Part shown: positions 7,561-63,725 of the stretch, one piece after another | Layout: each line of letters opens with the position of its first letter | How positions within the stretch are numbered: the stretch's first letter is position 1 | Assembly (NCBI GenBank): GCA_050949175.1 | Contig: JBMNFG010000011.1 | Location: 195,749-259,748, forward strand | Reading direction: 5' to 3' | DNA: 64,000 nt | Source of the DNA: Bacillota bacterium | GTDB taxonomy: Bacteria; Bacillota; SHA-98; UBA4971 | Program-made: the position numbers and the translations under genes | The notes under the pieces: generated by a model | Told to the model about the DNA's origin: nothing | What the model saw: the letters and a program-made list of their open reading frames with translations, nothing else | The model's database searches: none

Positions 7561-8058
7561 TAGGCATTGGTGTATCGACGCATGCCTCGACGCCAGTATA
7601 TTGACAAATGCCCAGGCGCCAGTATATTAACGGATGCCTATGTGCCAGCGTATTGAGGTATACCTAGGCGTTAGTATATTAACGCGTGCCTAGGCGTTGG
7701 AGTGTTGACGAATGCATAGGCATTGGTGAATAGACGCATGTCTAATCGTCAGTGTATTGACGCAGGCATAGGCGTTAGTGTGTTCACGCATTGCTAGGCG
7801 ATAGCGATCGACTCAGGCCTAGTATGCCTAGGCATTGACATGTTGATGCGTGCCTAGGCGATACTGTATTGACGCATGCGGAGCATACCTAAGCGCTAGT
7901 GTATTGGCGCATTCCTAGGCCATACTTCATTGACGCAGACCTAGCATGCGTAGACGCTAACGTATCGACACGTGCCTAGGCGCCGGTGTATCGACACATG
8001 CATAGTCACTGGTGTATTGACGCATGCATAGGCTTTGGTGTATTGACGCATGCCTAGG
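7553..8058. repeat. tandem array C: about 17 units of about 30 bp (GCATGCCTAGGCGTTAGTGTATTGACGCAT)
   Basis: Direct reading. Abuts copy 1 of the dispersed element and the 3' end of the A2M-like gene. Confidence 0.9.
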
Positions 8059-11000
8059 GAGTGTATGCCACTGCGTGGATAGGTTTATAATAGTCTTCCG
8101 ATATCAGCTCCCGGACAACTGTGCCGCCTGTGTCAATAGTCCGCCAGACTGCAACCCGGATTCCAGGCTTTCCGGCGGAAATCTTCTCATTTTCGGAGTT
8201 GCCGCCTGCCATGAGTCTGGGCCTTTCTACATTCAAGACTTCCCGCGTCACCTCCACTTGCCTCTTGGCTAAAAGACCAGCCTTTACCTCGACGGTAAGT
8301 CTCGGTCCCTCTGTGCGTGCACTTATAGTCACCGGGACATCCAGTTGGTTCTTGAACCGCAAGTCAAGCCCGCTTTCTTCACTGATCGTAGCATCAAAGC
8401 CCGGTGGCACATAGTCTACAGGCTGTGAGTGCGGGTGACGCTCGACTATCTCCAGCCCCGCCCTGAGAACCGCGTTATATAGCGTAGTCGACACCTGGCA
8501 GATACCTCCTGCCACTCCTGGCACGCTCTTGCCTCCTGAGATCACCCTGGCTTCTTTGTACCCCTGCGCCTCAAGCCTCGGCCCTAATACCTTGTCCAAA
8601 GAAAACACTTCTCCGGGCTGGAGCACAAATCCGTCAATAGCCTGCGCAGCAAGGGCGATGTTGTGATTCCTATTCAATTCTGGCTCTTTAACAGTAGTAG
8701 AAAAACCCGCTAAGGTAGGCATCTCAACAACTATATCGTGGCTCCTGGAAGCACCGTATACGTCAGGCAAGTACATCCCCCACGCCATAGTCGGCATCAC
8801 CTTGTATTCTCCAGGCCGTTCAGCCCTCATGGAATACACTATCTCGTTCTCGCCCTCATCAAGATAAGTGCTGAAGATCGCTACTTTCTCATCGCGGATT
8901 TCTTTCTGCGCAAACCAGAAATCCCAGCTGTAGCGGTCAACCGGCTTATCGATCACTTCAAATCCTGACGGAAGGGGATCCTCAATCATGATGTACGTGC
9001 GAGGCCTATCCGTTCTCACGGTGAGCCTGACTATAATCTCATCTCCCTGATTCACACGGCCTGTAATCGGCTCAAAGGTGTTGCTTCCTTGGACTTTGCG
9101 GTAGTAATTGCGACTCACCTTCAGGCCGTTATCAACTTCTGCCATGGATTCAGACGGAGTCACGTACTTGCAGCTAACAGAGTAATAGAGCCTTCCCGTA
9201 CCCGTTTTCTTGACAACAAGTTCATTCTTGCCCGGAACCAATTGGCTCGGGTCTATCTCTATCACGCTCTCCTTATCCCATGCATTTTTCCCGGAAAACG
9301 CGATCCTTTCCACCTGTTTTCCATTGAGTGATACGTTTGCCGTTATATTTGACTTAATCTCCTCACGGAGCTTCATATACTCAGTTAGCGCCATTACGGC
9401 AATGGCAGTGTCTTTCGTAGATGTCCAGGCATTCCCCATGCGTGCTTCAGACAGCCACCTCACAACTTGCGGAGCCACAGGATGGTCAGGCTCTACAGCC
9501 AGTATTGCCAAAAGGGCATATGCAGTAGTCTCAATCCGATTGTCGGCCCAGTACCACTCCTCCTGTGACGCATCCCAGTAAGTCCTCGCGTTATCACCGC
9601 GAGCACGCTGCAAGAGGTCGCCAAGGACTATCCTTGCATCATCAAGCCTCTCCACGTTCTTCAAAGTCAGAGTAAGGAGAGCCAGAGAATAGTTGGAAAG
9701 CTCCTCGCGCCTCACGATCATCTCATCAAGACGGGGCAGGAACCTCTCTCCGACCTCAGACATAATGAACAAGTTGTATACCAGGTCATCAACGCTTTTC
9801 GGCTTGTTAAGGAATACGCCAAGTGCCCTCTTGCCTCGCATTAAAACGCCGTCATCTACGTGGTAACCTGCTTTCTTTGCGAGATTGAGGCCATACACTA
9901 CGTACGCAGTTGTCCTTGCTTTAGGCTCGTCATATCCCCACCAGCCCCAGCCGCCTTCCCAGTGCTGATACTTGTATAACCGGGCAAGGCCTGCGTTTAC
10001 CATATCCGGAAGGTCCTTCTCAATCTCAGGCATCTCAATGCCCAGTTCACGAAGGGTATTGGAAACGATAATGTTAGGCAGGAACGAGTTCATCGTCTGC
10101 TCGGTACAGCCGTACGGATAGGACGTTAGATATTCTAGAGCTCCTAAAGCAGTGGCAGCCACAGAAGGTGCAAGCCTGACTTCCACATTCAATGTGTTAT
10201 CTATTACATCTTCCGGAACATCAAATACGATTTTCACTTCTCCGTCTTCTGCCGGGTCTTTCCCTACCTCGCCGCCATCAAATACCTGAACCTGGTTACC
10301 AAAGGGCAGCACGGAAACGTTAAGCTCCAGAGCATCACTGAGTCTTCCTGCACTTGCTGACGCAGTAAACTTAGCAACACCTACTGTGTCGCATTTGATC
10401 TTCCAGTTAAGTGTAGCCTGCGCGCCGGGAGCCAGGTCTACTCCTCGCTCTTTCCCATCAACCAAGGCGACCCCTTCTGCTTTGAGGCTGACCTTGGCGT
10501 TTATTTGCCTGTCAGTATAGTTGTGGACGATTGTAGATATATAAGTAGTATCGCCCAGCCTGAAGAACCTAGGCACAGCCATCCTGACAATAAGGTCCTT
10601 CGTGGTCTTCACGTCACGCGTAGCGGACCCCACTTGGGTAGCCAATGTATGGCCTCTGACAGTTGCCCTCCATGTAGTTAAGGAATCAGGCATGGTGAAA
10701 CTGACTTTCGCTGTGCCTTTTCTGTCAGTCATAACTACAGGCGCCCAAAAGGCTGTATCCGGAAAATCCCTTCGGACATCTGAGTCACCTGCCTCCTTGT
10801 CTGCGCCTCCATAGTACCACCGCGGGAAAGAGTAGTTTGTCATAATCTGGTTCCATATCGACCCGTAGAATGCTTTCCGGATATCAGGTGCAAGCTCGCC
10901 CTGGATGGCATAAATCGATGCGTCCACAACTCCTATTGAGACTTCAGCCTGCACGGGACGGCCTGCATGGTCCAGCGTCTTAATGGTATAGGAAGCCCGC

Positions 11001-13084
11001 TCGCCAGGGCTATAAGTCTCTTTGTCCGGAGTAATGGATATATCAAGGAAGTTCTCTTTTACTGAAACATACATCACCTTTTCCTGCATATAAAGCTGTT
11101 TCCCACGGACAAAAGTGACTGTAAAGAACGAGTTAGGACTGAATTCCTGGGTTATGGGGATCTCAAACAGCCTCGTATGTCCTGTGAGCTCAACCACTTC
11201 CCAGGAGGCTAAGTCGCGCCCTTCAATGGTAATCAATGCCCAAACATGGTCAAACGTTGTATTCACAAGGACCTTTGCAACATCACCTATCTCATAGACA
11301 TCCTTGTCAGTAATGATCTCGATTTCAGTCCCGCCGTAACTGGACCAGCTCCCTTCATAGCCGGCTACCCAGACGTACGCTTCCTCAACAATGCGGTTCC
11401 CTCTTTCGTCAACCCCAGAGACTTCCACCAGGTAAGACCCTTCTTCTTTCGGAGTAAACTCGAACTCCGCCTTCCCGTCCTTACCTGTGGATACCTTCCC
11501 TGATTGCTCCTTCCACCTGATGGATTTGTCCCCATCCCAGGTTTCCTTCATGCTTTGCCATTCAAGATCTACGGCATGAGGTTGGCCGTCTATGGTCTCT
11601 GCTTTTATAAGAATCTTTGAAGGCTCTCCGGGAGGTACTACGTATTTGGCAGGCTGGACAGTTATATCGAAAAGGCCTCGAGAGAGAATCACTGACGACC
11701 TTCCCGTAACCTCCCTTAAACTCTCATCAGTCACGGTTGCTTCTAAATACAATCTCTGAGACCTCTGGATCTTATCTGTCTTTATAGTAAACTGCATGGT
11801 TCCGTCATCTGACGTAACACCTTCGCCTGAATCTACAAGCTCGCCATAATACCCGTAACCCGCGTCGAAAACAGGATAATAGCCCAGGTCTTCTGTGGAG
11901 TAATAACTACGCCAGTACGGTTGGGCGTACACGGCGTACTTTACCTTTGCGCCGGCAACAGGTTTGCCGAAGTAGTAATTAGCTGAAATCCTGGCAGATA
12001 TCTCATCCCCTGCCACATAAATGTCCTTGTCAGCAGTGACTGTGACCTCATACTCCGGCTTCCTGTATTCAGCCACTTTAAACCAGCCATTATGCGTGCT
12101 TCCACACACATTGACAAGGACCCGGTAATCACCTAAAGAAGGCTCATCTCCTAGGGTAAGTTCTCCTGTAACAGAGCCGTACTTGTTGGTCTTAGTGTCT
12201 GCCCTGTAAATAACCGCATCCGTTGAATCTCTAACCTCAATTGTGACTTCTTCATCAGCCAAAACTTCAAAAACTCCGCCTTTATCTTCACGAAGAATGC
12301 CTTTAATCGATACCTTCTGACCCGGCCTGTATATCGGCCGGTCAGTGTAGATATACACCTTATAACGGGCATCTTCCCAGTACCTCCAAGAACTTATCTG
12401 TGCAAAACTGACGCCATCGTCCTCTTCCCGGACACCGAGTATGAACATTTCTCCCCTGGGAGTGCCGGTAAGATCAAAAGCGAAGAGCCCGTCGCGATCT
12501 GTGGTTCCCTCTCCGATGATTTCCCTGTTTTCGTTGTATATGGTAATCCTGGCGCCTTCACACGGGGCCTCCTTGCTGAAGGTGTAGGCGTAGACCAAGA
12601 GTTTACCCTCACCTTGTTTAGTCACGAGCCCAAGGTCTGTTACAATAAACCAGTCGCTGGCTTCACGTCCTTCACTGTCTCTGGCCGTGACCATGTACAC
12701 TCCTTTACCCTCGGACCCGATTCCCGGATCTACCCTGAATCCCGATCCTGCCGGGCCTTGACGAGGACGTTCCCAGAACTCCCGAACCAGTACTGCGTCT
12801 TCCGGCATAACCTGCTCAGTTAAGGATAATGACCCGTGCTGTCTAAAAAACGCTTCTGCATCGAATTTCCAGACAGAAAAGTCAACTCTGGTAGCACCCT
12901 CGCTCCTCACGCGGATCAGGGGCGTCTCAGCCGGTGTATTAACCCGTACGTCTGAGTCCACGTACAAGTGACCTTCAGCTGCTTTGCTGTCTACCGGAAA
13001 CGAGCGTAGAGCAAAAGCCAGTCCGATAAAGAAAGCCACGATTACACCTGTTACAAATAAATTCCGATGACGCTGTGTTTTCAT
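8054..13084 (-). CDS. alpha-2-macroglobulin family protein with intact thioester motif, fused to a C-terminal VanW domain
   Basis: 1676 aa. N-terminal signal anchor and a large beta-rich MG-domain region. YPYGCTEQ (CxEQ thioester) at about residue 950, then a receptor-binding-like domain. Last about 170 aa carry the VanW signature GGICQVSTTLYNAVLRAGLEIVERHPHSQPVDYVPPGFDATI. Confidence 0.72.
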   Translation of the reverse strand: MKTQRHRNLFVTGVIVAFFIGLAFALRSFPVDSKAAEGHLYVDSDVRVNTPAETPLIRVRSEGATRVDFSVWKFDAEAFFRQHGSLSLTEQVMPEDAVLVREFWERPRQGPAGSGFRVDPGIGSEGKGVYMVTARDSEGREASDWFIVTDLGLVTKQGEGKLLVYAYTFSKEAPCEGARITIYNENREIIGEGTTDRDGLFAFDLTGTPRGEMFILGVREEDDGVSFAQISSWRYWEDARYKVYIYTDRPIYRPGQKVSIKGILREDKGGVFEVLADEEVTIEVRDSTDAVIYRADTKTNKYGSVTGELTLGDEPSLGDYRVLVNVCGSTHNGWFKVAEYRKPEYEVTVTADKDIYVAGDEISARISANYYFGKPVAGAKVKYAVYAQPYWRSYYSTEDLGYYPVFDAGYGYYGELVDSGEGVTSDDGTMQFTIKTDKIQRSQRLYLEATVTDESLREVTGRSSVILSRGLFDITVQPAKYVVPPGEPSKILIKAETIDGQPHAVDLEWQSMKETWDGDKSIRWKEQSGKVSTGKDGKAEFEFTPKEEGSYLVEVSGVDERGNRIVEEAYVWVAGYEGSWSSYGGTEIEIITDKDVYEIGDVAKVLVNTTFDHVWALITIEGRDLASWEVVELTGHTRLFEIPITQEFSPNSFFTVTFVRGKQLYMQEKVMYVSVKENFLDISITPDKETYSPGERASYTIKTLDHAGRPVQAEVSIGVVDASIYAIQGELAPDIRKAFYGSIWNQIMTNYSFPRWYYGGADKEAGDSDVRRDFPDTAFWAPVVMTDRKGTAKVSFTMPDSLTTWRATVRGHTLATQVGSATRDVKTTKDLIVRMAVPRFFRLGDTTYISTIVHNYTDRQINAKVSLKAEGVALVDGKERGVDLAPGAQATLNWKIKCDTVGVAKFTASASAGRLSDALELNVSVLPFGNQVQVFDGGEVGKDPAEDGEVKIVFDVPEDVIDNTLNVEVRLAPSVAATALGALEYLTSYPYGCTEQTMNSFLPNIIVSNTLRELGIEMPEIEKDLPDMVNAGLARLYKYQHWEGGWGWWGYDEPKARTTAYVVYGLNLAKKAGYHVDDGVLMRGKRALGVFLNKPKSVDDLVYNLFIMSEVGERFLPRLDEMIVRREELSNYSLALLTLTLKNVERLDDARIVLGDLLQRARGDNARTYWDASQEEWYWADNRIETTAYALLAILAVEPDHPVAPQVVRWLSEARMGNAWTSTKDTAIAVMALTEYMKLREEIKSNITANVSLNGKQVERIAFSGKNAWDKESVIEIDPSQLVPGKNELVVKKTGTGRLYYSVSCKYVTPSESMAEVDNGLKVSRNYYRKVQGSNTFEPITGRVNQGDEIIVRLTVRTDRPRTYIMIEDPLPSGFEVIDKPVDRYSWDFWFAQKEIRDEKVAIFSTYLDEGENEIVYSMRAERPGEYKVMPTMAWGMYLPDVYGASRSHDIVVEMPTLAGFSTTVKEPELNRNHNIALAAQAIDGFVLQPGEVFSLDKVLGPRLEAQGYKEARVISGGKSVPGVAGGICQVSTTLYNAVLRAGLEIVERHPHSQPVDYVPPGFDATISEESGLDLRFKNQLDVPVTISARTEGPRLTVEVKAGLLAKRQVEVTREVLNVERPRLMAGGNSENEKISAGKPGIRVAVWRTIDTGGTVVRELISEDYYKPIHAVAYTP

Positions 13085-13091
13085 GGTTGCT

Positions 13092-13937
13092 TTACCCCCT
13101 TACGGGCAGAGTTTTCCCGAACTTTTCTGTTTCAAAGACATATAACTCGAACGGAGTCTGAGCTCCTATACCTGCTTCCCGCATAGCCCATTCCTTTTGA
13201 TATTTGCTTGTCCTGGCCTCACCCGGCAGTATTACCCCGGAGCGCCCACTTGTCTTTATCAGAATCCCTTCCAAACGCGGGTTAACTATCACATCGGGAC
13301 TCTCTCTTCTGACCCGTCCTACAACAGATACGCAAAACTCGAGGTTATCAAGGTCTTCCGCTGTTATCGGAGGATGGCGGATGTCCATGGTAGCAGCCAT
13401 CCGGGCTGCCCTCTTAATCTCTTCATATAAGTTGGGCTCGCCGGGATAAATCCTTCCCATACATCCCCTGACTTTGTTGTCAATTATTATCGTAACGAAC
13501 ACGCCCGCTTGAATGCTCTTAAGGGGGCTTGACGAGGATTTGTCGGCATCATTCTCGCTTGGCCCCGGCTTTTCGCCCAGGACCACGCGGGTTACAGACC
13601 TTCCGGCAATATCCAGAATCTCCTGTTCCAAAGCAGGCGAGCGCAATGCTCTCAGCCTGTCCAAAGGGTCGCTTCCTTGAAAGATCGGAGATGCTTCGCC
13701 AAGCCGAGAGGGACTTTCCTCATCCGGCCTCTGCTCCTCTAGCGGTGATTTCAAAGATAAAGAATCCAGCCCTCCACGGCCTTCTCCTTGAACACCGTGG
13801 GGGCTGTATGAAGCCTTAAGAATGAAGAGGCCTACAATAATCAGGAAAGCAGTGATGCAACTAATAGTTACCCGTCTATTGCCAGGCTTCCCCCGGCCTT
13901 GCGAAGTCACAGAATCCAAAGCTCCTTTTTCAAGCAA
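13092..13937 (-). CDS. membrane-anchored AMMECR1-domain protein
   Basis: 281 aa. Basic N-terminus, one TM helix (ITAFLIIVGLFIL), a Pro/Ser/Glu-rich linker, then the AMMECR1 core GVFVTIIIDNKVRGCMG...DIRHPPITAEDLDNLEFCVSVVG. Only 8 bp downstream of the A2M-VanW gene. Confidence 0.68.
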   Translation of the reverse strand: MLEKGALDSVTSQGRGKPGNRRVTISCITAFLIIVGLFILKASYSPHGVQGEGRGGLDSLSLKSPLEEQRPDEESPSRLGEASPIFQGSDPLDRLRALRSPALEQEILDIAGRSVTRVVLGEKPGPSENDADKSSSSPLKSIQAGVFVTIIIDNKVRGCMGRIYPGEPNLYEEIKRAARMAATMDIRHPPITAEDLDNLEFCVSVVGRVRRESPDVIVNPRLEGILIKTSGRSGVILPGEARTSKYQKEWAMREAGIGAQTPFELYVFETEKFGKTLPVRG

Positions 13938-14140
13938 GACGGTCTTTTTCGGTTGAACGTAATTACCTGTGAGTTCAGTTCTATTCGTCTATGCTCGATT
14001 CCTTCCCAATTCCCTATGTAAACCTTATAAATTTTGGATCTTAATTCGTAAATAAGGTTTTTTGCCCTCTCCGACATAGTAACGTCCATTATACGTTGGA
14101 ATAACATGTTGTGAGGAAGACTTATGAAGGGAGAATCATT

Positions 14141-15001
14141 ATGATTACATATATAGTCCAACCCGGTGATACCCTTGCCTTAATCGCACAACGCTTCGGT
14201 TCTACAGTGCAGTCAATCGTCTCCACAAACAACATATCTGACCCGAACCTTATTTTTGTGGGACAGGTACTGCAGATACCGGTGGCAGGTGCACCGCCGA
14301 CTGCGACTCCGCCTACTACGCCGGCACCACCTACTCCTGCCCCTACACCGCCGTCGATTACAGTCCCTGACGGCTTCAGGCTCTACATTGTACAGCCTGC
14401 AGATACCCTGGCTGAGCTCGCAAGACGCTTCGGGACGACTGTTCAGGTCCTGGTTTCGGTAAACCGCATCCCTGATATAAACCTGATAACTGTGGGACAG
14501 GTCTTGTTTGTTCCCATAAGGCCGATTACAGTTGTGCCTGTGCCGCCGCCCAGTCCGCCGACACCGCCGGCACCGCCTACTCCACCTACACCTCCGGGAC
14601 CGCCTGTCACCGGAGTGAACCAGGTTTCCCTGGTCCAAGGCGGGCTTAGGCATACTTTCATGGTAAGTAGGACAACATTTTCACGGGGTGAGCCTGTCAG
14701 GCTGAGCCTCAGCAAGACGAATGTCACAGGATCCCCTGTGTCCATCACTTACAGAGGAAGCCAAAGATATGACTTTATCGTTACACGGGCAGGCAGAGAG
14801 ATTTGGCGGTGGTCTGAAGGGCGCTTCTTCACATTTGCTATCGAAACAATCTCTGTAGCCCCGGGAGAGCGTCTCCTCCACATACAGATATGGAATCAGA
14901 CTACAAACCGCGGAGTTCCGGTGTCTCCGGGAGTCTATACTGTCACAGCAGTTAACACAGGGACAGGAGTGAGGCTTAGCATTCAAATCGAGATTAGATG
15001 A
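14141..15001 (+). CDS. LysM-LysM protein with Pro/Thr-rich linkers and a C-terminal beta-rich domain (possibly BsuPI-like protease-inhibitor fold)
   Basis: Two LysM repeats ([17 protein letters not shown]..., [17 protein letters not shown]...) and PT-rich linkers. ATG at 14141 with a GGGAGA RBS; the ORF is also open from a GTG at 14111. Confidence 0.72.
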
Positions 15002-15455: not shown

Positions 15456-16769
15456 CTATCCTAATGGACCGCAATAGGAAAGCCTTGTCCCCGTATGCAC
15501 AACATCTCCATAGCTTAACCTGGCACCAAGCAGCACGTTCCTTATGCCGGCAGTATCTTCACCCCGTGCTATCAGGCTCCGTAAGACACCTGCCGCTTGT
15601 GTGGAAGGGCCTGAGATCACAGCTCCTACCAACCGCCCGTCGGAGAACACCAGGCGCCTGTACTCTTTTCTACGCCTATCCAGGAACAATACTGCCTCGT
15701 CCCCTTCTTCAGGCCGGATTTTCCCTAAGGTTATCAAAGACTTATCACCGAACGAGACTGAATTCAGGCCTACGTCCCCCGGATATGACACTCTGCGCCC
15801 GGCCATATTGTATCCTGCAACTCTTCCCTGCCAGACAGCGCTGGACCAAAGCGCGTTTACCCAATGCTTCCCGCGGGCTCTGTCATGGCCTTCAGCAATG
15901 TCGCCTGCCGCGTAGACATTCGGGACATTCGTCTCCATCCTGTCGTTTACAAGAATACCGAACCCTGCCTCGATCTCGGTCCCTTTTATGCTAGACAGAT
16001 TGGGGCTTACACCTTTCCCGATGACAACCATGTCACAGTCTATAACCTCGCCTGTTGAAAGGCGGACCCTTTCAACTTCTCCGTCTCCTTCAATCGCTGC
16101 GGCATCGCATCTTAGCCTGATATCCAAACCGGGCACTTGGAACATATTGAACACTACTTCTTGATCCTCGGGGGCTGTGATCTGAGACAGCAACCTTCCG
16201 GAAGTTACGACAAGCACGACATCTATGCCGCGGGCAAGCAAGCCTTCAACTGTCTTAATACTGACAAGGCCTCCGCCTAGCACCACTGCCCGCTTGGATG
16301 TGGGAGTCTTCTCCTTGATCTTCTTCGCATCCTCCAGAGTCCTTAAAGAATACACACCTGACAGCGTAGCCCCGGGAATATCAGGAACCTGGGGACTGCT
16401 GCCCATTGCAAGCAGCAGCGAATTATAAGCCAGGCGGCGTCCGTCTTCAAGTTCAACGACTTTTCCGATGGGATCAACACGAGAAGCCCCTACACCCAGC
16501 AATGGCCTGACCCCGTTCTTTTCGTAAAAATCCTCATCTACCAGAAAGACGTCGTCAAGATCGGTTTTTCCGCCTATCCAGTAGGTTAGGAGAATCTTGG
16601 AATAATACCTCTCAACCTCGGGAGATACGATTGCTACCTCGCCGTCAGGGTCTACCTCGCGTATGGCAAGGAGGGCGCTGATTCCCGCAGGACCGTTCCC
16701 TAGGATCACGTAATTGCTAAAGCCAGAGTCTGCTTTACCTTCTTCGAACGCCTTATCAACCAAAGGCAA
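15456..16769 (-). CDS. FAD/NAD(P)-binding pyridine nucleotide-disulfide oxidoreductase family protein (AorC-like electron-transfer subunit)
   Basis: 437 aa. GxGxxG dinucleotide folds (ILGNGPAGISA, VVLGGGLVS). Last gene of the AOR operon. Confidence 0.72.
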   Translation of the reverse strand: MPLVDKAFEEGKADSGFSNYVILGNGPAGISALLAIREVDPDGEVAIVSPEVERYYSKILLTYWIGGKTDLDDVFLVDEDFYEKNGVRPLLGVGASRVDPIGKVVELEDGRRLAYNSLLLAMGSSPQVPDIPGATLSGVYSLRTLEDAKKIKEKTPTSKRAVVLGGGLVSIKTVEGLLARGIDVVLVVTSGRLLSQITAPEDQEVVFNMFQVPGLDIRLRCDAAAIEGDGEVERVRLSTGEVIDCDMVVIGKGVSPNLSSIKGTEIEAGFGILVNDRMETNVPNVYAAGDIAEGHDRARGKHWVNALWSSAVWQGRVAGYNMAGRRVSYPGDVGLNSVSFGDKSLITLGKIRPEEGDEAVLFLDRRRKEYRRLVFSDGRLVGAVISGPSTQAAGVLRSLIARGEDTAGIRNVLLGARLSYGDVVHTGTRLSYCGPLG

Positions 16770-16808
16770 TTCCCCTCCCTCGAAGCCTGTGGCTTGAGCA
16801 AAGTAAAA

Positions 16809-17087
16809 CTAGCCGCCGGCGACAGCCGAGAGGAAACTGACGGTGTCGCCGTCATTCAGTTTGGTCTTGACTCCGGAGATAAACTCAATATTCCTTCCGT
16901 TTACAAGGATATTGATATCCCGCCTGAGTTCTCCGGATCCGGTAAGCAATTCATTCTTAAGAGGCAGGCCGAAGCGGGATACCAGGACTTCGACTAAAGT
17001 TTCTATATCAGGAGCCAAGTCAGCAGGTATCTCCACTTCGTCAACGCCTGTCGCTGTCTTCATGAAGAAGAAGAACCTAACGCGCAC
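16809..17087 (-). CDS. MoaD/ThiS-family small protein (AorD-like)
   Basis: 92 aa ending in GG. The beta-grasp length fits. The real start may be the internal Met at 17063. Confidence 0.6.
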   Translation of the reverse strand: MRVRFFFFMKTATGVDEVEIPADLAPDIETLVEVLVSRFGLPLKNELLTGSGELRRDINILVNGRNIEFISGVKTKLNDGDTVSFLSAVAGG

Positions 17088-17118
17088 GTTATGCCTCCTC
17101 TTACACCCATCTTGACTC

Positions 17119-18924
17119 TTATTCTTCGAGACCCAGCCTTTCCAGGGTTTCAGGGGTCGGGTCTCCTTTATCTGTCCAGCCTCTGAGCGCGTAGTACTCA
17201 GCTAACATCTCAGCGAGTTCCACTACCTGGCCTTCGGCCGGCCCTTCCGGCATCTTTTCTTCAGTAAGCCTGGGCACAAGTCTGTCCTCGTTCCCTGTCA
17301 ATCCTTCCCTCATGTTGTAGAGGCGTTCCAGGTTCCATATGCGTTCACCTGCAAGGAGCGCTTTCTCCTCAGGGAACGGTATGCCTGTTGCAGGCTCAAG
17401 CATGCTTGCCACATCAGGCGCACCCAGGGCAAATGTGGTGAACAAACACACGCCTGAAGAGTCCACCAAAGCTGTTACATCCTGAAAAGCCTTGACCCAG
17501 AAAGCCTTGTTTTCCTTGGACAGAGGATCCAGCTTTTCAGGGACACCCAGCATCTCAGGGGAGATGGTGTAGCCTCGCACGTGACACCCGCCTCTGTTGG
17601 ATGTCGCGTAGTTGAGTCCGATACCCTTAGATCCACGAGGATCGTAAGCCGGATACTCCTGCTTCTTCGTGCTCATCGAAAGCTCAGGATGGCCGAACTC
17701 CTCCGCAAGGCGGTATGACCCTTTGGCCAGCAGCTCGCCGATTCCCTCTTTATAAGCAGTCTTCTTAATCGCCTCAATCAAGATATCAGGGTCACCGAAC
17801 CTCAGCGGTATATCGGTGGCATCCTTCGGCATGTAACCTTTCTCGTAGAGTTCCATGGCGCAAGCTATGGTTGATCCCATGGTGATGGGGTCAAGTCCAA
17901 GCTCATTGCACAAGTAGTTGCCTTTCGTGATGGCTTCCAGGTTGTCTATGCCGCATGTTGCACCGAAGGCCCAGATAATCTCATATTCAGGACCTTCGCC
18001 TTTGCCTGCGTATTTTCCGGTGGCCACTTCAGTTGGCCTGCTGCAGGCGATTGGACAGGCAAAGCATGAGCGCTTCCTTACAAGGAGCGTGTCTGCCAAG
18101 GTCTCGCCGGATATCTTCTCTGCTCCTTCAAACACACCGGTCTGGAAGTTCCTTGTAGGGAACGCTCCGTGCTGGTTGACTACGTTCACCAGGACAGGAG
18201 TGCCGTAAGTCGGCAGGCCTTGCGAGGTAACAGGATGTTCCTTGATCTTCTTCAAAGCAGCTGCCACAGCCTGTCTGAATCCATCCATGTCTGCAATTCT
18301 AACGTCACCTGTTCCGCGCACGACAACGGCTTTCAGGTTCTTTGAACCCATGACAGCACCGACTCCTGAGCGGCCGGCAGCTCTGCCTTTGTCATTGATG
18401 ATGCATGCAAACAATACCTGGTTCTCACCTGCAGGCCCTATGCATGAGACTTTAGCGTCAGGATCTGTCTCAGCCAGGAGGATATCTGTGGTTTCCGATG
18501 TGTCCTTGCCCCAGACATGTTTCGCAGAACGGATTTCCACTTTTCCGTTGTTTACCCAGATATAAACCGGCTCATCAGCTTTCCCTTCGAAGATGAAAGC
18601 GTCAAAGCCCGCGTACTTCATTTCAGCAGGGAAATACCCGCCTGAATTAGACGCAGCTATATACCCGGTAAGGGGAGACTTTGTGATAACGTTGTAACGG
18701 CCTGATGATATGGCTCCTGTCCCTGTAAGAGGTCCTGTTGCAAATATCAGCTTGTTTTCCGGGCTGAACGGATCTATTCCAGGTTTAGTCTCGTCGTACA
18801 AGATCTTTGTACCCAAGCCTCTGGCGCCCAGATACTCCTCAGCCAGCTTGGGATCAAGATCTTCTACCTTAACTGACCTATTGGTCAGGTCTATCCTGGC
18901 CAGTTTTCCTATCCAACCGTACAT
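17119..18924 (-). CDS. aor: tungsten-containing aldehyde:ferredoxin oxidoreductase (AOR family)
   Basis: 601 aa. The N-terminus [24 protein letters not shown]...[15 protein letters not shown] closely resembles Pyrococcus AOR, and the full-length layout is AOR-type. Confidence 0.9.
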
Positions 18925-19424
18925 CAGATCTTCACCTCCTGCAGGGCACGCTTCAGTTTGTCACCGATTTCCATACGTTTACGGACCATCGCACTGTCTG
19001 CTTCCACAAACTTAATGGCGTCCCACGGACAGAACTTAACGCACTCCGGATCACCGCCGCACAGGTCGCATTTGACTGCCTTGCCGTCAGGAGAGCAATA
19101 GGAAATCGCTCCGAACGGGCAAGCAGCTGAGCACATTCTGCAGCCTATGCATTTGGATTCTTCGATTACTACAGCACCTGTTTCGGGGTTCTTGGATATT
19201 GCGCCGGTGGGACATACGTCTCTGCAGAGGGGTTCTTCACAATGCTGACATGTTACTGGGAAGAAGAAGTTGTCTTCGAGGAAAATAGCTACTGTGATTC
19301 TTGCCTTAGCCGGATTGATTACCCCACACTGCCTTGCTGAACAAGCCAGCTCACAAATACGGCATGCGGTACACTTCTCATGCTCTACGAGCAAGAGTTT
19401 CTCCAAGGCACCATCCCTCCTCAA
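18924..19424 (-). CDS. 4x[4Fe-4S] ferredoxin-like electron-transfer subunit (AorA-like)
   Basis: 166 aa with four CxxCxxCxxxCP motifs. The stop codon overlaps the AOR start codon. Confidence 0.85.
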
Positions 19425-19590
19425 ATCTTCAGTTTTTGCCTGCGAGATAATTTATTCGCCGGAATACTATGAAAATCCTTCCATTAAATTCATTTCGGGA
19501 AACCGGTCAGAAAACCGATCAGGGAACCGGCTCCACCGTTTATCGGCCCGGCCCTTTTTTTGTTGGTTTAAGCCTGTAGCAGGGCATAAG

Positions 19591-19630
19591 ATAAAAACAG
19601 CCCCCGGGTCATGGATTAAACCCGGAGGCA
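19591..19630 (-). terminator. putative intrinsic terminator downstream of hutU
   Basis: Hairpin GCCTCCGGG-N12-CCCGGGGGC followed by UGUUUUUAU on the minus strand. Confidence 0.45.
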
Positions 19631-19644
19631 AAGGCGAGCCTCTT

Positions 19645-19690
19645 TTACACCCTCAAGAACAAACTCAAGAACAGACTTAAGAACAAAAGG
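19645..19690 (-). promoter_or_regulatory. three direct repeats TGTTCTTGAG spaced 12 bp apart, upstream of the AOR operon
   Basis: Minus-strand reading TGTTCTTAAGTCTGTTCTTGAGTTTGTTCTTGAGG, about 220 bp upstream of the aorA-like start codon. Confidence 0.4.
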
Positions 19691-19713: not shown

Positions 19714-21384
19714 TCAGCGGTTGATGCCGTCTGTGTCCAACATGGGGACCTTAATGCCATGCTTTCTTGCAGCCTCTATAGCTTTGTCATACCCTGCGTC
19801 AACATGTCGCATTATTCCTGTGCCTGGATCCGTCGTGAGCACTCTTTCCAGACGAAAGTCCGCCTGGTCACTACCGTCTGCGACTACCACCATCCCTGCA
19901 TGGATTGAATAACCTATCCCCACGCCGCCGCCATGATGCACAGAAACCCAGGAAGCTCCGGACACTGCATTCAATAATGCGTTCAAGATAGGCCAGTCAG
20001 CTATAGCATCGCTCCCATCATTCATTCCTTCCGTTTCCCGGTTCGGGGATGCGACTGAGCCTGCATCAAGGTGATCACGTCCGATTACAATAGGAGCTGA
20101 TATCTCACCTCTCCTCACCAGCTCATTGATGGCCTTGCCGAACCTTTCCCGCTCACCATAGCCTAACCAGCATATCCTGGCAGGCAACCCTTGAAACTGC
20201 ACTTTTTCCCGGGCGAATCTGATCCATTGAGCCAGATGCTGATCTTCCGGGAACTCCCTCAGCACAACCTCATCAGTCTTGTAGATGTCTTCAGGATCTC
20301 CGGAAAGCGCAACCCACCTAAAGGGTCCTTTGCCTTCACAGAAGAGCGGACGAATGTAAGCAGGAACAAACCCCGGATAGGAAAACGCCTCTTTAACCCC
20401 TGCATTGAAAGCTTGCTGCCTTATGTTGTTGCCGTAATCGAAGGCTATTGCGCCCTGGCGTTTCATATCAAGGATAGCCTCAACGTGGACTGCCATGGAT
20501 TCCATTGCTCGTTCTATGTACTGCTTCGGATCGCGGCTGCGCAAGCTTTCAGCTTCAGCGAAGGATAGGCCTCTAGGGATGTAGCCTCCTAAGGGATCAT
20601 GGGCTGAGGTCTGGTCTGTAACCAAATCAGGAATGACCCCGCGCTTTGCGAACTCAGGATGGGTCATTGCTGCATTTCCAAGCAAGGCTATGGACAAGGG
20701 GCGCTTCTCATGCTGCGCTTCTCTTGCGAGCCTAATGGCCTCATCAATACTTGTCGTCATAGTGTCGCAATACCCGGTTTCAAGCCTTCGTCTTATGCGC
20801 TCTTCGTTCACTTCCACTGCAATGACGACTCCGCCGTTTAAGGTAACAGCCAGAGGTTGAGCTCCTCCCATTCCGCCAAGGCCTGCGGTGAGGACAAGCC
20901 TCCCGGCAAGGCTACCGTCAAAGTGCTGTTTTGCAGCCTCAGCAAAGGTCTCGTACGTTCCCTGCAAGATGCCCTGAGTGCCTATGTAGATCCAGCTCCC
21001 TGCAGTCATCTGCCCGTACATGGTAAGGCCCATTTCCTCAAGCTCCCAAAACTTCTCCCATGTAGCCCATTTAGGGACGAGCATTGAGTTGGATATCAGC
21101 ACCCTCGGAGCAAGTTCATGTGTACGAAAGACACCAACAGGTTTTCCTGACTGCACCAGGAGAGTCTCGTCACTTTCCAACTCTTTGAGGGTTCTGGCTA
21201 TAGCGTCAAAACAATCCCAGTTCCGCGCTGCCTTACCTCTTCCGCCGTAAACCACAAGCTCGTCCGGGTTCTCCGCTACCTCAGGATCCAGGTTATTCAT
21301 GAGCATCCTCATGGCAGCTTCCTGCTGCCACCCTTTGCACGAAATTGCAGAACCCCGCGGGGCCTTCACTATCCTCGACACCAC
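19714..21384 (-). CDS. hutU: urocanate hydratase
   Basis: [32 protein letters not shown] matches the HutU N-terminus. A GTG at 21384 has an AAGGGGG RBS; the ORF is formally open to a TTG at 21408. Confidence 0.9.
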
Positions 21385-21404
21385 CTTCGCCCCCTTTTCA
21401 AATA

Positions 21405-21454
21405 TCAAAGTAAAACGGGCAAGGTTTTGGCTCTGTCAAAATCCTTGCCCGTTC
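21405..21454 (-). terminator. intrinsic terminator of ftsH
   Basis: 11-bp perfect stem AACGGGCAAGG / CCTTGCCCGTT followed by UUUUAC on the minus strand. Confidence 0.7.
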
Positions 21455-40186: not shown

Positions 40187-40837
40187 GTGACTGATTCATC
40201 ATGGCTGAAGAGCGTGGGAGATGCCCTTCTAAGAACAGAGAATATTATTATGATTGTGGCCATAGGCATCCTGGTCTATCTTTTGTGGCTCACAAATCCA
40301 TCTAAAACGAAGACAAGTGCAGGTAGAAGGCCTGTCTATACGATAACTGAAATCGGCGTGGCTGTTGCGCTTGCTTCGATACTCGGTATGATTAGACTCT
40401 ACAGAATGCCTCAAGGAGGCTCAGTTTCCCTGGAAATGCTGCCTATCTTCTACGTCGCACTCCGGAGCGGCGGAGGTGTAGGCATACTGACAGGCCTTGC
40501 ATTAGGGCTTGTACAATTGCTCTTAGGAGCGTATATCGTCCATCCGGTGCAACTCCTTCTTGACTACCCTCTGGCATTTGCCTTCCTCGGAGTGGCAGGT
40601 TTCTTCCGAAGACACCAGGTGCTCGGAATCATCTTAGGCGGGCTGGGCAGGTTCATAATGCACGTATTGTCAGGCGTTGTGTTCTTCGGAACCTATGCCC
40701 CGGAAGGGACTAACGTGTGGCTGTACTCAATGACATATAATGCGTCTTATATGATACCTGAACTCATCATCTGCATAATCGTCATGCTTGTCCTGGGTTT
40801 AGGGAGAAGCACCTCCACATCTGTGGGAAGAGGGTAG
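40187..40837 (+). CDS. thiT: thiamine transporter ThiT (ECF S-component, YuaJ family)
   Basis: 6-TM protein. The block LRSGGGVGILTGLALGLVQLLLGAYIVHP...LLLDYPLAFAFLGVAGFFRR aligns to L. lactis ThiT (LRRGLTAGLVGGLIWGIL...HAYIL...LEYLVAPVSLGIAGLFRQ). GTG start with a GAGGAG RBS. The TPP riboswitch lies upstream. Confidence 0.78.
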   Translation: MTDSSWLKSVGDALLRTENIIMIVAIGILVYLLWLTNPSKTKTSAGRRPVYTITEIGVAVALASILGMIRLYRMPQGGSVSLEMLPIFYVALRSGGGVGILTGLALGLVQLLLGAYIVHPVQLLLDYPLAFAFLGVAGFFRRHQVLGIILGGLGRFIMHVLSGVVFFGTYAPEGTNVWLYSMTYNASYMIPELIICIIVMLVLGLGRSTSTSVGRG

Positions 40838-49606: not shown

Positions 49607-50998
49607 ATGAACTCATCCGCCGGCCAACTGCACAGAGACTCCGGAATGTTCCACGTAACTCTGGATCCTGAAGGACCCGGTGTAATCAGGCTCCATTTGA
49701 GAAGGGCGGAGAAGAACTTGTGGAACCTCTTAGGAAAGCCGAGACTGTCTAAGCTATGGATCAACGGAACCCAGCTCCTTCTGCTTGAAGATTCAGCAGC
49801 AGATATAGTTCAGTCCATCATAGAGACGGCCCAAGATGAAACGCGCCCCGGGGAAGAGGTTTCTTTGGAGAGTTGGCGCAAGATCAAAAAAGAAATCGGA
49901 AAGAGAGTTCAGAATCTTTATCCGCGAACCCCTATTTCGCGGATTGAAGAAGATATCGATTATATATACGGATTGATTGTGGAATTATCTAAAGGCGCGT
50001 GTCCGAAAGATTTAGGAATAGAAGGCCAGATAATCGATTATGAGGAATGGCATATCCCCGCCAGGATGGACCTTATGATCTCGTCAATGAAGGGTTCAGG
50101 CTGCCAGAATGCGTGCTCATGGTGTTATGCAGCTGATATGCCTGATATACCTGAGCTGGACACCGATTCCTGGAAAAAGGTCCTGGATATGCTATGGGAA
50201 ATCGGTATCCCGCATATAGATTTCACCGGAGGAGAGCCGACAACAAGGTCTGACCTGATTGAACTCATAGAGTATGCCGAAAGATTCGTAACAGGCCTCA
50301 TAACCAACGGAAGAGCCATACCGCACCTTGCGAAAGATTTAAAGAGGGTAAGTTTAGATTACATCCAGATAAGCATAGAATCAGCTGACCCTAAGATCCA
50401 TGATAAGATTGTCAACTCGCCGGGGGCATGGAAGGAGACGGTCAGCGGAATCCGGGCCGCTCTCGATGAAGGGCTTTATACATCCACCAATACGACCCTT
50501 ACGCGGGAGAACGCAGATGGTTTCCCTGAGCTCATTCGGTTTCTTGCAGATCTGGGTGTCCGCTACATCGGATGCAACAGCCTGATTAAAACAGGCGGAG
50601 GGCGAAACCACAAAGATGCCATGGATGAGGCTGAGCTCGAAGCAATCCTCAAGAAGGCTGTTGATGTTGCAGATGAACTTAAGCTTGAACTTAGCTGGTT
50701 TACACCCACGTGCTACCTGAAGCTGAATCCTGTTAACCTTGGGTTAGGAGCCAAATCCTGTTCAGCATGCACAACTAATATGGCAATAAGGCCTGACGGA
50801 GTGGTGGTGCCTTGCCAGTCATGGCTGCACGATGAAGGTCTCGGCAACATCCTCGAGGAGCCATGGGAGAGGATCTTCAACCATCCCCTTGCACGCAGGA
50901 TAAGAGCACATGAACTCAAGGACCCAAAGTGCGGCGATTGCCCGCACCTTGCTGTGTGTGGTGGCGCTTGTCAGATAGAACAAGTCTTGCCTAAGTGA
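49607..50998 (+). CDS. radical SAM protein with C-terminal SPASM-like Cys-rich domain and an about 150-aa N-terminal extension
   Basis: CQNACSWC (Cx3Cx2C) at about residue 165; C-terminal CSACTT...PCQSW...KCGDCPHLAVCGGACQ. Confidence 0.78.
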   Translation: MNSSAGQLHRDSGMFHVTLDPEGPGVIRLHLRRAEKNLWNLLGKPRLSKLWINGTQLLLLEDSAADIVQSIIETAQDETRPGEEVSLESWRKIKKEIGKRVQNLYPRTPISRIEEDIDYIYGLIVELSKGACPKDLGIEGQIIDYEEWHIPARMDLMISSMKGSGCQNACSWCYAADMPDIPELDTDSWKKVLDMLWEIGIPHIDFTGGEPTTRSDLIELIEYAERFVTGLITNGRAIPHLAKDLKRVSLDYIQISIESADPKIHDKIVNSPGAWKETVSGIRAALDEGLYTSTNTTLTRENADGFPELIRFLADLGVRYIGCNSLIKTGGGRNHKDAMDEAELEAILKKAVDVADELKLELSWFTPTCYLKLNPVNLGLGAKSCSACTTNMAIRPDGVVVPCQSWLHDEGLGNILEEPWERIFNHPLARRIRAHELKDPKCGDCPHLAVCGGACQIEQVLPK

Positions 50999-51105
50999 TG
51001 TGCAGGGAAACGAAAAGCGGAAACGAAAGGCTGCACGAAACCCAGATGCTGCGCAAAACCTAAGTCGCGGTCACGCACAGGATCTAAGAGAAAGAGGTTA
51101 TTATA

Positions 51106-52266
51106 ATGGGAAAAAGCCTCCCTCATACAAGACATATAACATGGATCCGTATATGTATCTTCCTCGCAGTCTTCTGCTGCGTTCTCACGCTTCCGGTATT
51201 TGCAGATACCGGCACCTATAAGATAAAAGACTATGCAGTAGAGATAACCCCCCAGCCTGACGGCAGCTGGGTGGCTTACTATACTCAAGAATGGGAAGTG
51301 CTCAGCGGATCGATTCCTTGGGTTACCGTAGGCCTGCCTAACGCAAACTATGAAGTGATTTCTTGGACCGGCGCAGCAACCCAAGTGAAGCCTGACAACC
51401 AGGGTGCGTGGAGCGGGGTTTACGTCCAACTGGATAATGACTACAGAAGGGGAGAAAGCTTCAATTTCGGGTTTAAGGTGATTCAGCAGAGAGTCGCCTA
51501 CCCCAAAGAAGGTTCACACGTGGAGTTTTCCTTCACTCCCGGTTGGTACGATAACAGTCCGGTTGAGCGCATGACGATTACTTTAGATAACCCCTGGTCG
51601 CCGGAGGATTTAAGATATACATCCCCTACCCCTACGGAGCAGCACGACAATAAGGTCGTATGGGTGACATCTCTCAGGCCGGGTCAGCGCTTCAACGTCG
51701 ATTTCGCGTTTTCACCTGAAGTCTTCACCGAACTCCGGCAGACTCCAAGGGGATCTATGCCAGGGGCATCCGGTGAGGGCGAAGAAATGTTCGATGCTGC
51801 CATCATCGGCTTTATCATCCTTTTCATTTTTATCTTGCTATTCCTTATAATTATCAGCGCCATCTTAAGAAGCCGTCGAAGGTATTACCGCCCGAGACGT
51901 GGAATTTACTATGGGACTCCTAAGCCTTTCGTTGCACCTGTACCTGCCGTTCCGGGCACAAGACTACGAAGGGTGCCAGGTAAGAAGGGAGAGTCTCCTA
52001 AGTCGGGAGATTCCAAGAAATCCGGAAGCGGAGGCGGTGGTTTCGGCGGTAGATCTAGCGGGTGTTATTGCGTATCGTGCGCATGTGCCTGCGTATCATG
52101 TGCATGCGCATGTGCGTGCGCAGGAGGGCGAGGAGCAGGTTGTGCACAGAAGTTCAGCCGGATGGGCTTAACTGATAAACGAGACACAAAGGCAGAGATC
52201 GCCCGGAAGAACACAGAGGCCGCTTGGAAGAACCATGAGACGGAAACAGAAAGAGCTGACATGTGA
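51106..52266 (+). CDS. DUF2207-like membrane protein (signal peptide, extracellular domain, TM helix, low-complexity C-tail)
   Basis: Architecture plus the Gly-rich tail GSGGGGFGGRSSG. The tail continues into an unusual Cys/Ala stretch CYCVSCACACVSCACACACA. Confidence 0.65.
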   Translation: MGKSLPHTRHITWIRICIFLAVFCCVLTLPVFADTGTYKIKDYAVEITPQPDGSWVAYYTQEWEVLSGSIPWVTVGLPNANYEVISWTGAATQVKPDNQGAWSGVYVQLDNDYRRGESFNFGFKVIQQRVAYPKEGSHVEFSFTPGWYDNSPVERMTITLDNPWSPEDLRYTSPTPTEQHDNKVVWVTSLRPGQRFNVDFAFSPEVFTELRQTPRGSMPGASGEGEEMFDAAIIGFIILFIFILLFLIIISAILRSRRRYYRPRRGIYYGTPKPFVAPVPAVPGTRLRRVPGKKGESPKSGDSKKSGSGGGGFGGRSSGCYCVSCACACVSCACACACAGGRGAGCAQKFSRMGLTDKRDTKAEIARKNTEAAWKNHETETERADM

Positions 52267-52934
52267 TGAACACCCACATGACACGTGTCAAACGGACTTC
52301 GCCTGACTTCGTAGGCGTGAAAACACCGCAATCTGTGGATTTTGCCAGGCTCTTATGGTTTCTCCTGGTTACAGCCTTGATCGTAGTCACAGTGTCAGGA
52401 TGCGGGTTTATCAAGAACGCTCAACAATCCCCCGGCGGGACACCGGATATGCCTTATGACGAAAACGTTGAAGTCCCGTCAGGAGACCCTGATTTCCCCC
52501 CGCTAGGGCAGTACTGGGTAGTCGACCCTGACGGCCTCGTAGGGATATCAGCCATCCGGATGGCAGATGAAACACTTGACGACCTGAAATCTCAACGCAT
52601 AGCCGAAGTGGTAATAGTCGTCCAAAAAGGTGTCAAGCATCCGGTTGAGTGGTCCACGCATTACGGTAGATGGCTCCGGCTGGGTGAAGCTGAAGGCCCA
52701 CATCAGAATAATGGTCTTGTATTCTTGATAATACCTGATGCGCCTGGCAGCTCAGGCAGAGTTTGGTATAGTATCGGCAGAGGCTTGCCGAAGTTGACAT
52801 CTTCTGATATGGGACCTCTCCTTGAAGAGGCAGCTTCATACGCTAATGCCGATGATTTGGACGGAGCGGTAATATCCATCGCAAGGAATATCCATGACAT
52901 TCTCCTGAAGATATATGGGAGGGGAGCGCAATGA
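52263..52934 (+). CDS. TPM-domain (TLP18.3/Psb32-like phosphatase) lipoprotein
   Basis: Lipobox VTVSGC. The TPM core runs VVIVVQKG...LVFLIIPDAP...RVWYSIGRGL. 4-bp overlaps with both neighbouring genes. Confidence 0.68.
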   Translation: MMNTHMTRVKRTSPDFVGVKTPQSVDFARLLWFLLVTALIVVTVSGCGFIKNAQQSPGGTPDMPYDENVEVPSGDPDFPPLGQYWVVDPDGLVGISAIRMADETLDDLKSQRIAEVVIVVQKGVKHPVEWSTHYGRWLRLGEAEGPHQNNGLVFLIIPDAPGSSGRVWYSIGRGLPKLTSSDMGPLLEEAASYANADDLDGAVISIARNIHDILLKIYGRGAQ

Positions 52935-63668: not shown

Positions 63669-63696
63669 CTTTCCGCCCCCCCTCGTTCGGATTGGT

Positions 63697-63725
63697 CTTA
63701 TAGAAGCCGCATATATAAGCAGCAA
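63697..63725 (-). promoter_or_regulatory. candidate sigma-A promoter of hcp (TTGCTG-N17-TATAAG)
   Basis: Read on the minus strand. A perfect palindrome GGACC-N-GGTCC lies about 45 bp further upstream (63767-63777). Confidence 0.4.

Follow-up and report, generated by a model that had tools for sequence, protein, structure and literature searches.

A predicted Moorella-type multisubunit tungsten aldehyde oxidoreductase operon in an uncultured lineage of Bacillota

A four-gene operon on the minus strand of a 64-kb stretch of Bacillota DNA (contig JBMNFG010000011.1, positions 195,749 to 259,748; hereinafter the window, numbered from its first nucleotide) very probably encodes an orthologue of the multisubunit tungsten aldehyde oxidoreductase (AOR) of Moorella thermoacetica, that is, an enzyme of the 'N type' of WOR clade 87. 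This clade has been divided into a single-subunit M type (66%), an N type with a flavin adenine dinucleotide (FAD)/NAD(P) subunit (26%), an electron-bifurcating BF type (7%) and a U type (2%) (Feng et al., 2025; PMC12318220). The assignment is based on the genes present and their intact cofactor motifs, on homology and synteny, and on the placement in phylogenetic trees. The operon is an uncharacterised orthologue in an uncultured Bacillota lineage and belongs to an ordinary, already catalogued enzyme type. An earlier note on this DNA, made by a model from the letters and open reading frames (ORFs), had named a Firmicute as the host. Given that M. thermoacetica has an identical A-B-D-C operon and a long-characterised three-subunit enzyme (PMC6365974; PMC10816221), a three-subunit AOR in a Firmicute is the oldest known example of the type and not a novelty.

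Gene content and order of the operon

The four ORFs, all intact, are arranged head to tail between 19424 and 15456, in the order 4x[4Fe-4S] subunit, AOR catalytic subunit, MoaD-like protein, FAD/pyridine-nucleotide oxidoreductase (A-B-D-C). The gene content, order and coordinates that the earlier note had given, with hutU upstream on the same strand, were borne out by ORF calls and by matches to Pfam and NCBIfam models.

18924..19406, minus strand: aorA/worS-like electron-transfer subunit, 4x[4Fe-4S], conserved C-terminal tail, 160 aa, 17.5 kDa
17119..18924, minus strand: aorB/worL catalytic tungstopterin subunit, AFOR_N and AFOR_C domains, 601 aa, 65 kDa
16809..17087, minus strand: aorD, MoaD-family small protein with C-terminal Gly-Gly, 92 aa
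15456..16769, minus strand: aorC-like FAD subunit with a pyridine-nucleotide site, 435-437 aa, 46.7 kDa
21408..19714, minus strand: hutU, upstream of the operon, TIGR01228 979 bits

The aorA stop and the aorB start overlap as TGATG, as they do in related loci, aorC begins 39-45 nt after aorD on the same strand, and a convergent NifU-like gene lies downstream. The mechanically called aorA ORF (19424..18924) comprises 166 aa; translation more likely begins not at 19424 but at the TTG at 19406, given the GAGGAGG Shine-Dalgarno sequence 9 nt upstream of it and the alignments with WorS and AorA, which begin at that residue. The start of aorC is ambiguous (TTG at 16769 or 16763), and aorD starts with a GTG preceded by an AGGAGG Shine-Dalgarno sequence.

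Catalytic subunit

AorB is matched over its full length by the Pfam domains AFOR_N (E 7e-89, 297 bits) and AFOR_C (E 1e-154, 515 bits). In phmmer comparisons with Protein Data Bank (PDB) chains, its best match is WorL of the bifurcating WorABCSL complex of Acetomicrobium mobile (9mqx_D, 832 bits), followed by P. furiosus AOR (1aor, 700 bits), C. autoethanogenum AFOR (9g7j, 666 bits) and Aromatoleum aromaticum AorB (8c0z_A, 664 bits); the identities of 9MQX and 9G7J are taken from PMC12318220 and PMC12727526, respectively. The scores for FOR (319 bits), BamB (248 bits) and WOR5 (215 bits) are far lower, and the NCBIfam model of GAPOR gives AorB 45 bits only. The protein is thus nearer to the AORs (664-832 bits) than to FOR, GAPOR, WOR5 or BamB, which places it among the AORs sensu stricto (WOR clade 87). 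Sequence identity is 67% to the M. thermoacetica protein, 60.6% to A. mobile WorL, 53% to A. aromaticum AorB and 51-54% to single-subunit AORs. The alignment with 1AOR shows that the cysteine ligands of the [4Fe-4S] cluster (CxxCxxxC and the Cys in GVCLFTTF), the Glu of GPEYE, the His of GGCH (GGCHVRGY) and the pterin-binding Asp motifs are all kept, and two insertions of A. aromaticum AorB are missing from AorB of the window.

Given that the closest solved relative is WorL and that the bifurcating-type loci L017 and L022 are the next branches of the AorB tree, the possibility of an electron-bifurcating enzyme of the WorABCSL type, with joint reduction of ferredoxin and NAD, has to be weighed. 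This appears extremely unlikely: the genes of the BfuABC module (NuoE-, NuoF- and HydA-like), which are present in the control loci L017 and L022, were found neither beside the operon nor elsewhere in the window, and a single FAD subunit is encoded in their position.

Iron-sulfur subunit and MoaD-like protein

AorA contains Fer4_11 and related Pfam domains, and 16 cysteines in four CxxCxx(x..)CxxxC cluster motifs can be read directly from its sequence. Its best PDB matches are about equal, namely A. aromaticum AorA (8c0z_C, 133 bits, 47% identity) and A. mobile WorS (9mqx_E, 131 bits, 46%), and it is 54% identical to M. thermoacetica AorA. The pattern of its final ~20 residues is conserved across A-B-D-C and bifurcating-type loci. 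The equivalent C-terminal helix mediates nanowire assembly in AorA and WorS (bioRxiv 10.1101/2023.01.23.525143; PMC12318220); by analogy, the enzyme encoded in the window may form filaments via the AorA tail.

AorD (17087..16809) scores 68.5 bits against TIGR01687 (moaD_arch, cut-off 49.5), matches Pfam ThiS and is 38% identical to the counterpart at the same operon position in M. thermoacetica. It is presumed to be a sulfur carrier for pterin cofactor synthesis and no subunit of the enzyme; AorD and AorE of A. aromaticum were missing from the purified enzyme (PMC6365974).

The FAD subunit and the choice of coenzyme

AorC (16769..15456, 437 aa) matches Pfam Pyr_redox_2 and Rubredoxin_C and is a flavoprotein with two dinucleotide-binding folds: the FAD motif is GNGPAG, and the second Rossmann motif, GGGLVS, is followed by VVTSGRLLSQ. 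The best PDB match is A. aromaticum AorC (8c0z_E, 175 bits, 32% identity), and identity to M. thermoacetica AorC is 43%. An N-terminal extension of ~18 residues (PLVDKAFEEG...) is common only to relatives that are 68-76% identical.

The diagnostic site for the coenzyme is the end of beta-2 in the second Rossmann fold. Here, all nine Aromatoleum-type AorC sequences (A. aromaticum and eight metagenomic ones) have VVEMG(D/N)R(M/L)V, whereas AorC of the window has VVTSGRLLSQ, and its close relatives and M. thermoacetica have VVSSGRLLSQ; the acidic residue of the NAD+ type, a Glu, is therefore replaced by Thr/Ser. Loss of this acidic residue, together with nearby Ser and Arg residues, is the usual signature of NADP(H) binding in this flavoprotein family. 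Given the loss of the Glu at the nucleotide site, the motif common with Moorella AorC, and the Moorella biochemistry, NADP(H) seems a somewhat better candidate for the partner than NAD(H). The A. aromaticum enzyme uses NAD+ and has no activity with NADP+ (Arndt et al., 2019; PMC6365974), and in the reference lists of PMC6365974 and PMC10221389 the title of Strobl et al. (1992) includes the words 'a viologen-accepting NADPH oxidoreductase'. Accordingly, of the coupling to NAD(H) that the earlier note had predicted, the pyridine-nucleotide linkage stands, and the binding motif favours a different coenzyme.

Phylogeny and class assignment

Trees were computed by neighbor joining (Kimura-corrected p-distance, 200 bootstraps). 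AorB of the window groups with that of locus L090 (96.5% bootstrap), then with Moorella and Thermanaeromonas (99%) and then with Frackibacter (83%). A. aromaticum AorB falls in a separate, 100%-supported clade, and the P. furiosus and C. autoethanogenum AORs are on another branch; the relationships among the Bacillota, Aromatoleum and single-subunit groups lack resolution in this tree. For AorC, the sequences from A-B-D-C loci likewise form one group (62.5%), which lies apart from the Aromatoleum-type AorC clade (100% support); AorB and AorC have therefore probably co-evolved.

The operon thus has the features of the N type, namely a 4x[4Fe-4S] subunit encoded next to the large subunit and an AorC homologue with conserved linkage, and those of the Moorella-type A-B-D-C clade, namely the gene order and an AorB that groups with M. 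thermoacetica in the Bacillota clade. AorB and AorC are both outside the Aromatoleum/Acidovorax clade, and their identities to the A. aromaticum proteins (53% and 32%) compare with 74% and 62% for the Acidovorax proteins (PMC6365974, Table 5).

A strict Aromatoleum-type AorABC, NAD+-specific and orthologous to the A. aromaticum enzyme, appears improbable on these grounds. Although the AorA and AorC chains of 8c0z are the best solved matches of the small and FAD subunits and the subunit set is the same, AorB and AorC are both closer to M. thermoacetica (67% and 43%) than to A. aromaticum, the NAD-determining Glu is replaced, the two AorB insertions are missing, and the gene order is A-B-D-C, not A-B-C-D-E. 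Thus, the earlier note was right that the operon has the subunit set of a three-subunit pyridine-nucleotide-linked AOR, but trees, identities and gene order do not place it in the Aromatoleum AorABC subclade to which the note had likened it. The phylogenetic check that the note had proposed puts the AOR protein in a Bacillota clade with Moorella, apart from both the ferredoxin-only and the Aromatoleum AorB clades. Given that the AOR does not group with ferredoxin-only AORs and that, in all close relatives, the FAD gene is linked to an AOR, neither of the two outcomes that the note had named as fatal to its prediction has materialized.

Conservation of the operon in related genomes

The A-B-D-C order is present in all 11 loci with an AorB at least 77% identical to that of the window, all of which come from metagenome-assembled genomes (MAGs) of Bacillota type (genome and SRA assemblies). 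The closest loci also share hutU, NifU, a LysM protein, AMMECR1 and a giant alpha-2-macroglobulin/VanW protein; in the window, a 1676-aa alpha-2-macroglobulin-like protein (C-terminal VanW), AMMECR1 and LysM/BsuPI are encoded at 8054-13084 and 13092-15001, and these are syntenic with aor in all close relatives. The same order is found in L090, a 69% identical relative with a different neighbourhood, in a Thermanaeromonas MAG and in the complete M. thermoacetica genome (Fer4 159 aa, AOR 599 aa, ThiS 89 aa, FAD 407 aa).

Two relatives, a Moorella MAG (L089) and Frackibacter (L091), have A-B-D without C. In L089, the comparison of 8105-8563 with the M. thermoacetica locus (L172, 6001-7224) shows that aorC residues 23-100 and 382-407 remain, with an internal deletion of ~850 bp. 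Given this deletion remnant, the sequences indicate a secondary loss of aorC in L089, and the deletion itself could be a real gene loss or an assembly artefact. Farther AORs (52-58% identity) from Deferribacter, Desulfobacteraceae, Caldiserica and delta-proteobacterial MAGs, and also eleven metagenome loci, have the order A-B-C, and in relatives from Syntrophomonas and Spirochaetaceae A-B is followed by NuoE- and NuoF-like genes, that is, the bifurcating type.

The conserved linkage bears on the possibility that AorAB is a ferredoxin-linked two-subunit enzyme and the FAD protein an unrelated neighbour, such as a component of some other redox module. Homologous pairs of iron-sulfur (FeS) and FAD proteins do serve carbon monoxide dehydrogenase (CODH) or glutamate synthase, or stand alone, and in the two A-B-D loci C is missing. 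However, the FAD gene follows aorD closely on the same strand, and it is kept by all close relatives and also where the neighbourhood differs. The AorB and AorC trees are roughly congruent, the remnant in the Moorella MAG points to secondary loss, and purification of the M. thermoacetica enzyme yielded a third subunit as well (PMC10816221). We therefore consider a ferredoxin-linked AorAB very unlikely.

The FeS + FAD pair as a putative swappable module

Outside its own clade, the closest relatives of AorC (36-42% identity) have no link to AOR. Some are encoded in CooF-CooS-FAD clusters (L086, L087, L098), and the CODH-linked FAD proteins are 38-42% identical to AorC and have the VSSG motif in common. 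Homologues of the FeS + FAD pair are also found beside split glutamate synthase genes in Thermotoga and metagenomes (L088, L095, L101, L110), or alone with a ferredoxin (L004, L092, L093, L096, L099, L100, L119). The metagenome scan for AorC was based on a 7-sequence alignment whose patterns are general FAD motifs, and distant flavoproteins therefore make up many of the loci that it returned. Given the occurrence of pair homologues with CODH, with split glutamate synthase, or alone, the FeS + FAD pair appears to be a general NAD(P)-coupling module that is combined with several catalytic subunits.

Independent acquisition of extra subunits in different AOR subfamilies has already been suggested (Arndt et al., 2019; PMC6365974). 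Along these lines, we tentatively propose, as a possibility with less than even odds, that the N-type AORs comprise at least two lineages with a separately acquired FAD subunit, namely the Aromatoleum type (NAD+-specific, A-B-C-D) and the Bacillota type, including Moorella (A-B-D-C), the FAD subunit of the latter being NADP(H)-specific and drawn from the pool that serves CODH and glutamate synthase. If so, the window enzyme would be an NADPH-linked, filament-forming acid/aldehyde redox catalyst.

A different gene arrangement was observed in two delta-proteobacterial MAGs (L018 and L019, 7986-15257), in which an AOR 57% identical to AorB is followed by a small ferredoxin and then by a protein of ~1250-1370 aa. 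This large protein starts with an FAD-type GGGVGG motif, is provisionally labelled HdrA-like and may be another kind of AOR partner.

The hutU-aorA spacer

Three features were delineated upstream of aorA:

about 19652-19687, minus strand: tandem repeat of 3 copies (TGTTCTTAAG, TGTTCTTGAG, TGTTCTTGAG) in the hutU 3' region, period 12 bp, 36 bp, Tandem Repeats Finder score 58
19590..19629, minus strand: strong intrinsic-terminator-like hairpin (19629-19600) with an 11-bp stem of which 8 pairs are GC, followed by the T tract TGTTTTTATC
19407..19496, minus strand: conserved leader or putative promoter region, ~90 nt directly upstream of aorA

The earlier note had described three direct repeats with 12-bp spacing and suggested that they are a response-regulator-type site. 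The array is real and not due to chance as a tandem array; however, two copies are exact (TGTTCTTGAG) and one is mismatched (TGTTCTTAAG), 12 bp is the period, with spacers of 2 bp, and the array (19685-19652) lies outside 15456-19424, starting 29 nt after the hutU stop (19714), ~245 nt from the aorA start. The regulatory role did not hold up. The three TGTTCTT(G/A)AG copies do form a tandem array, and operators for response-regulator-type activators typically consist of direct repeats whose period is near one helical turn, but the array is missing from all four of the closest loci (L001, L006, L007 and L009; spacer alignment) despite coding regions that are 87-90% identical, it is located upstream of a conserved terminator, and no response-regulator gene is adjacent. 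The stem of this terminator (GCCCCCGGGTTT...AACCCGGGGGC) and its T tract are kept in all five aligned loci, in contrast to the diverged spacer around them. The same spacer contains a second tandem repeat with a 12-nt period (~2.6 copies of CTGAYCGGTTTY, 19500-19530, minus strand), which is likewise missing from the four closest loci. Given this second window-specific repeat, the repeats are probably lineage-specific, neutral slippage products in the hutU 3' region and not part of operon control, and an operator function has very little probability.

The only upstream block conserved among the window and these four loci is 19407..19496; judging from this conservation, the real control region is probably located there. 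No sigma-54 -24/-12 element with correct spacing was seen by eye upstream of aorA, and no Rfam family was found in the operon region at E up to 1 or in the whole window at gathering thresholds, including a molybdenum/tungsten cofactor (Moco/Wco) riboswitch before aorA. A functional link between hutU and aor was considered and rejected, given the conserved terminator between them and the MCP and GGDEF genes that intervene in relatives with 80% identity.

Points for and against the Moorella-type assignment

For each of the three subunits, the best match among solved structures is a chain of AorABC or WorABCSL, both complexes determined by cryo-electron microscopy, in agreement with an orthologue of the Moorella-type AOR. 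Several observations weigh in the opposite direction. AorC has rather low identity to its counterparts in Moorella (43%) and A. aromaticum (32%); the nearest solved relative of AorB belongs to a bifurcating complex, and the large subunit alone does not indicate the partner. The trees are neighbor-joining trees with Kimura distances rather than maximum likelihood trees, and the deep nodes of the AorC tree lack support. The NADP(H) assignment draws on one motif and on the title of a paper, known here through reference lists. A sigma-70 consensus scan revealed no promoter between the hutU terminator and aorA. Finally, there is no tungstate transporter, MoeB or MoaE gene in the 64-kb window, and tupABC, modABC, moeB/ThiF, moaA and moaE were not found by Pfam annotation of 29 other large ORFs of the window.

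Proposed mechanism

In the mechanism that we propose for the Moorella-type enzyme of the window, AorB would convert a wide variety of aldehydes into acids at a bis-pyranopterin site, probably with tungsten rather than molybdenum, and the reverse reaction would be possible with a strong enough reductant. Electrons would pass from the [4Fe-4S] cluster of AorB to the four clusters of AorA, which is probably held in short filaments through its conserved C-terminal tail, and would end at the FAD of a single AorC, where a pyridine nucleotide, most likely NADP+, would be reduced. A single complex of A, B and C, in which aldehydes serve to reduce NAD(P)+, is suggested by analogy to the AORs of M. thermoacetica (AOR_Mt) and A. 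aromaticum (AOR_Aa). AorD would act outside the enzyme, as a MoaD-type sulfur carrier that helps pterin cofactor synthesis. The operon is predicted to be transcribed apart from hutU, from a promoter within the conserved 90 nt before aorA.

Implications

The applied interest in multisubunit tungsten AORs comes from their ability to reduce unactivated carboxylic acids and to regenerate nicotinamide cofactors; an NADP(H)-linked form from Bacillota of anaerobic digesters would add one more candidate catalyst. For genome annotation, the arrangement Fer4-AOR-MoaD-FAD can be taken as a Moorella-type operon and the FeS + FAD pair as a swappable output module, and the nucleotide-site motif, VVEMGDR versus VV[ST]SGR, may separate NAD from NADP forms. 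These findings leave the current understanding of the AOR family unchanged.

Other features of the window

The presence of SpoIIE and AddAB in the window is consistent with a spore-forming member of Bacillota. A 569-aa Prismane-family protein is encoded at 62016-63725 (minus strand; Pfam 569 bits) and may be a hybrid-cluster protein or a CODH; its gene is ~275 bp from the window end, with neither a CooF nor an FAD gene next to it inside the window. A radical-SAM/SPASM enzyme (463 aa), an ORF without a Pfam match, and then TPM-domain and LemA-family proteins are encoded at 49607-53566. At the Rfam gathering score, no tRNA was detected over the 64 kb, and no thiamine pyrophosphate riboswitch precedes the ThiT/YuaJ-type thiamine transporter gene (40187-40837).

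Comparison with known systems

The AOR of M. thermoacetica (Clostridium thermoaceticum), 'carboxylic acid reductase', was reportedly purified as a three-subunit enzyme between 1989 and 1995, in work said to be that of White in 1989, Strobl in 1992 and Huber in 1995. It shares with the window operon the Fer4-AOR-MoaD-FAD order, the AorB clade (99%), the VV(S/T)SGRLLSQ motif and the AorA C-terminal tail, with identities of 54% (AorA), 67% (AorB), 38% (AorD) and 43% (AorC). The differences are the sigma-54 activator downstream of the Moorella operon, which is not found in the window, the ~18-residue N-terminal extension of the window AorC, and the lineage, which in the window is another, uncultured one of Bacillota. 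AOR_Mt is an alpha3-beta3-gamma enzyme whose complexes reach 1600 kDa and which works with pyridine nucleotides (PMC10816221). The equivalent operon and the three-subunit enzyme of M. thermoacetica were noted by Arndt et al. (2019; PMC6365974), whom we follow in assigning the characterised AOR_Mt to this operon; the identities of the Moorella proteins to A. aromaticum AorA, AorB and AorC given there (40%, 54% and 34%; Table 5) resemble those of the window proteins.

The A. aromaticum AorABC (8C0Z), described with two MoaD-like genes, aorD and aorE, in the order aorABCDE (Arndt et al., 2019; PMC6365974), likewise has three subunits, a chain of W-bis-pterin, five [4Fe-4S] clusters and FAD (as predicted for the window enzyme), pyridine-nucleotide coupling, MoaD-like genes in the operon and the AorA tail. 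It differs in its separate AorB and AorC clades (identities of 47%, 53% and 32% for A, B and C), in the order A-B-C-D-E versus A-B-D-C, in the two AorB insertions, and in AorC, whose NAD site contains a Glu, as opposed to Thr-Ser-Gly-Arg in the window; the A. aromaticum enzyme accepts NAD+ only (PMC6365974).

The bifurcating A. mobile WorABCSL (9MQX) has the closest solved catalytic subunit (60.6%) and a WorS that is 46% identical to AorA and has the same C-terminal tail, but it contains the BfuABC module and reduces ferredoxin and NAD, whereas the window encodes a single FAD subunit and no Bfu proteins. Single-subunit ferredoxin AORs (P. furiosus 1AOR, C. autoethanogenum 9G7J) have the same catalytic fold, cluster and pterin residues and are 51-54% identical, but they are on a separate tree branch and lack FeS or FAD partner genes. 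Finally, the CooF-CooS-FAD ('FNOR') CODH clusters and the archaeal-type glutamate synthase pair have the FeS + FAD electron-output module in common with the window operon, with Prismane/CooS or GltS rather than AOR as the catalytic partner.

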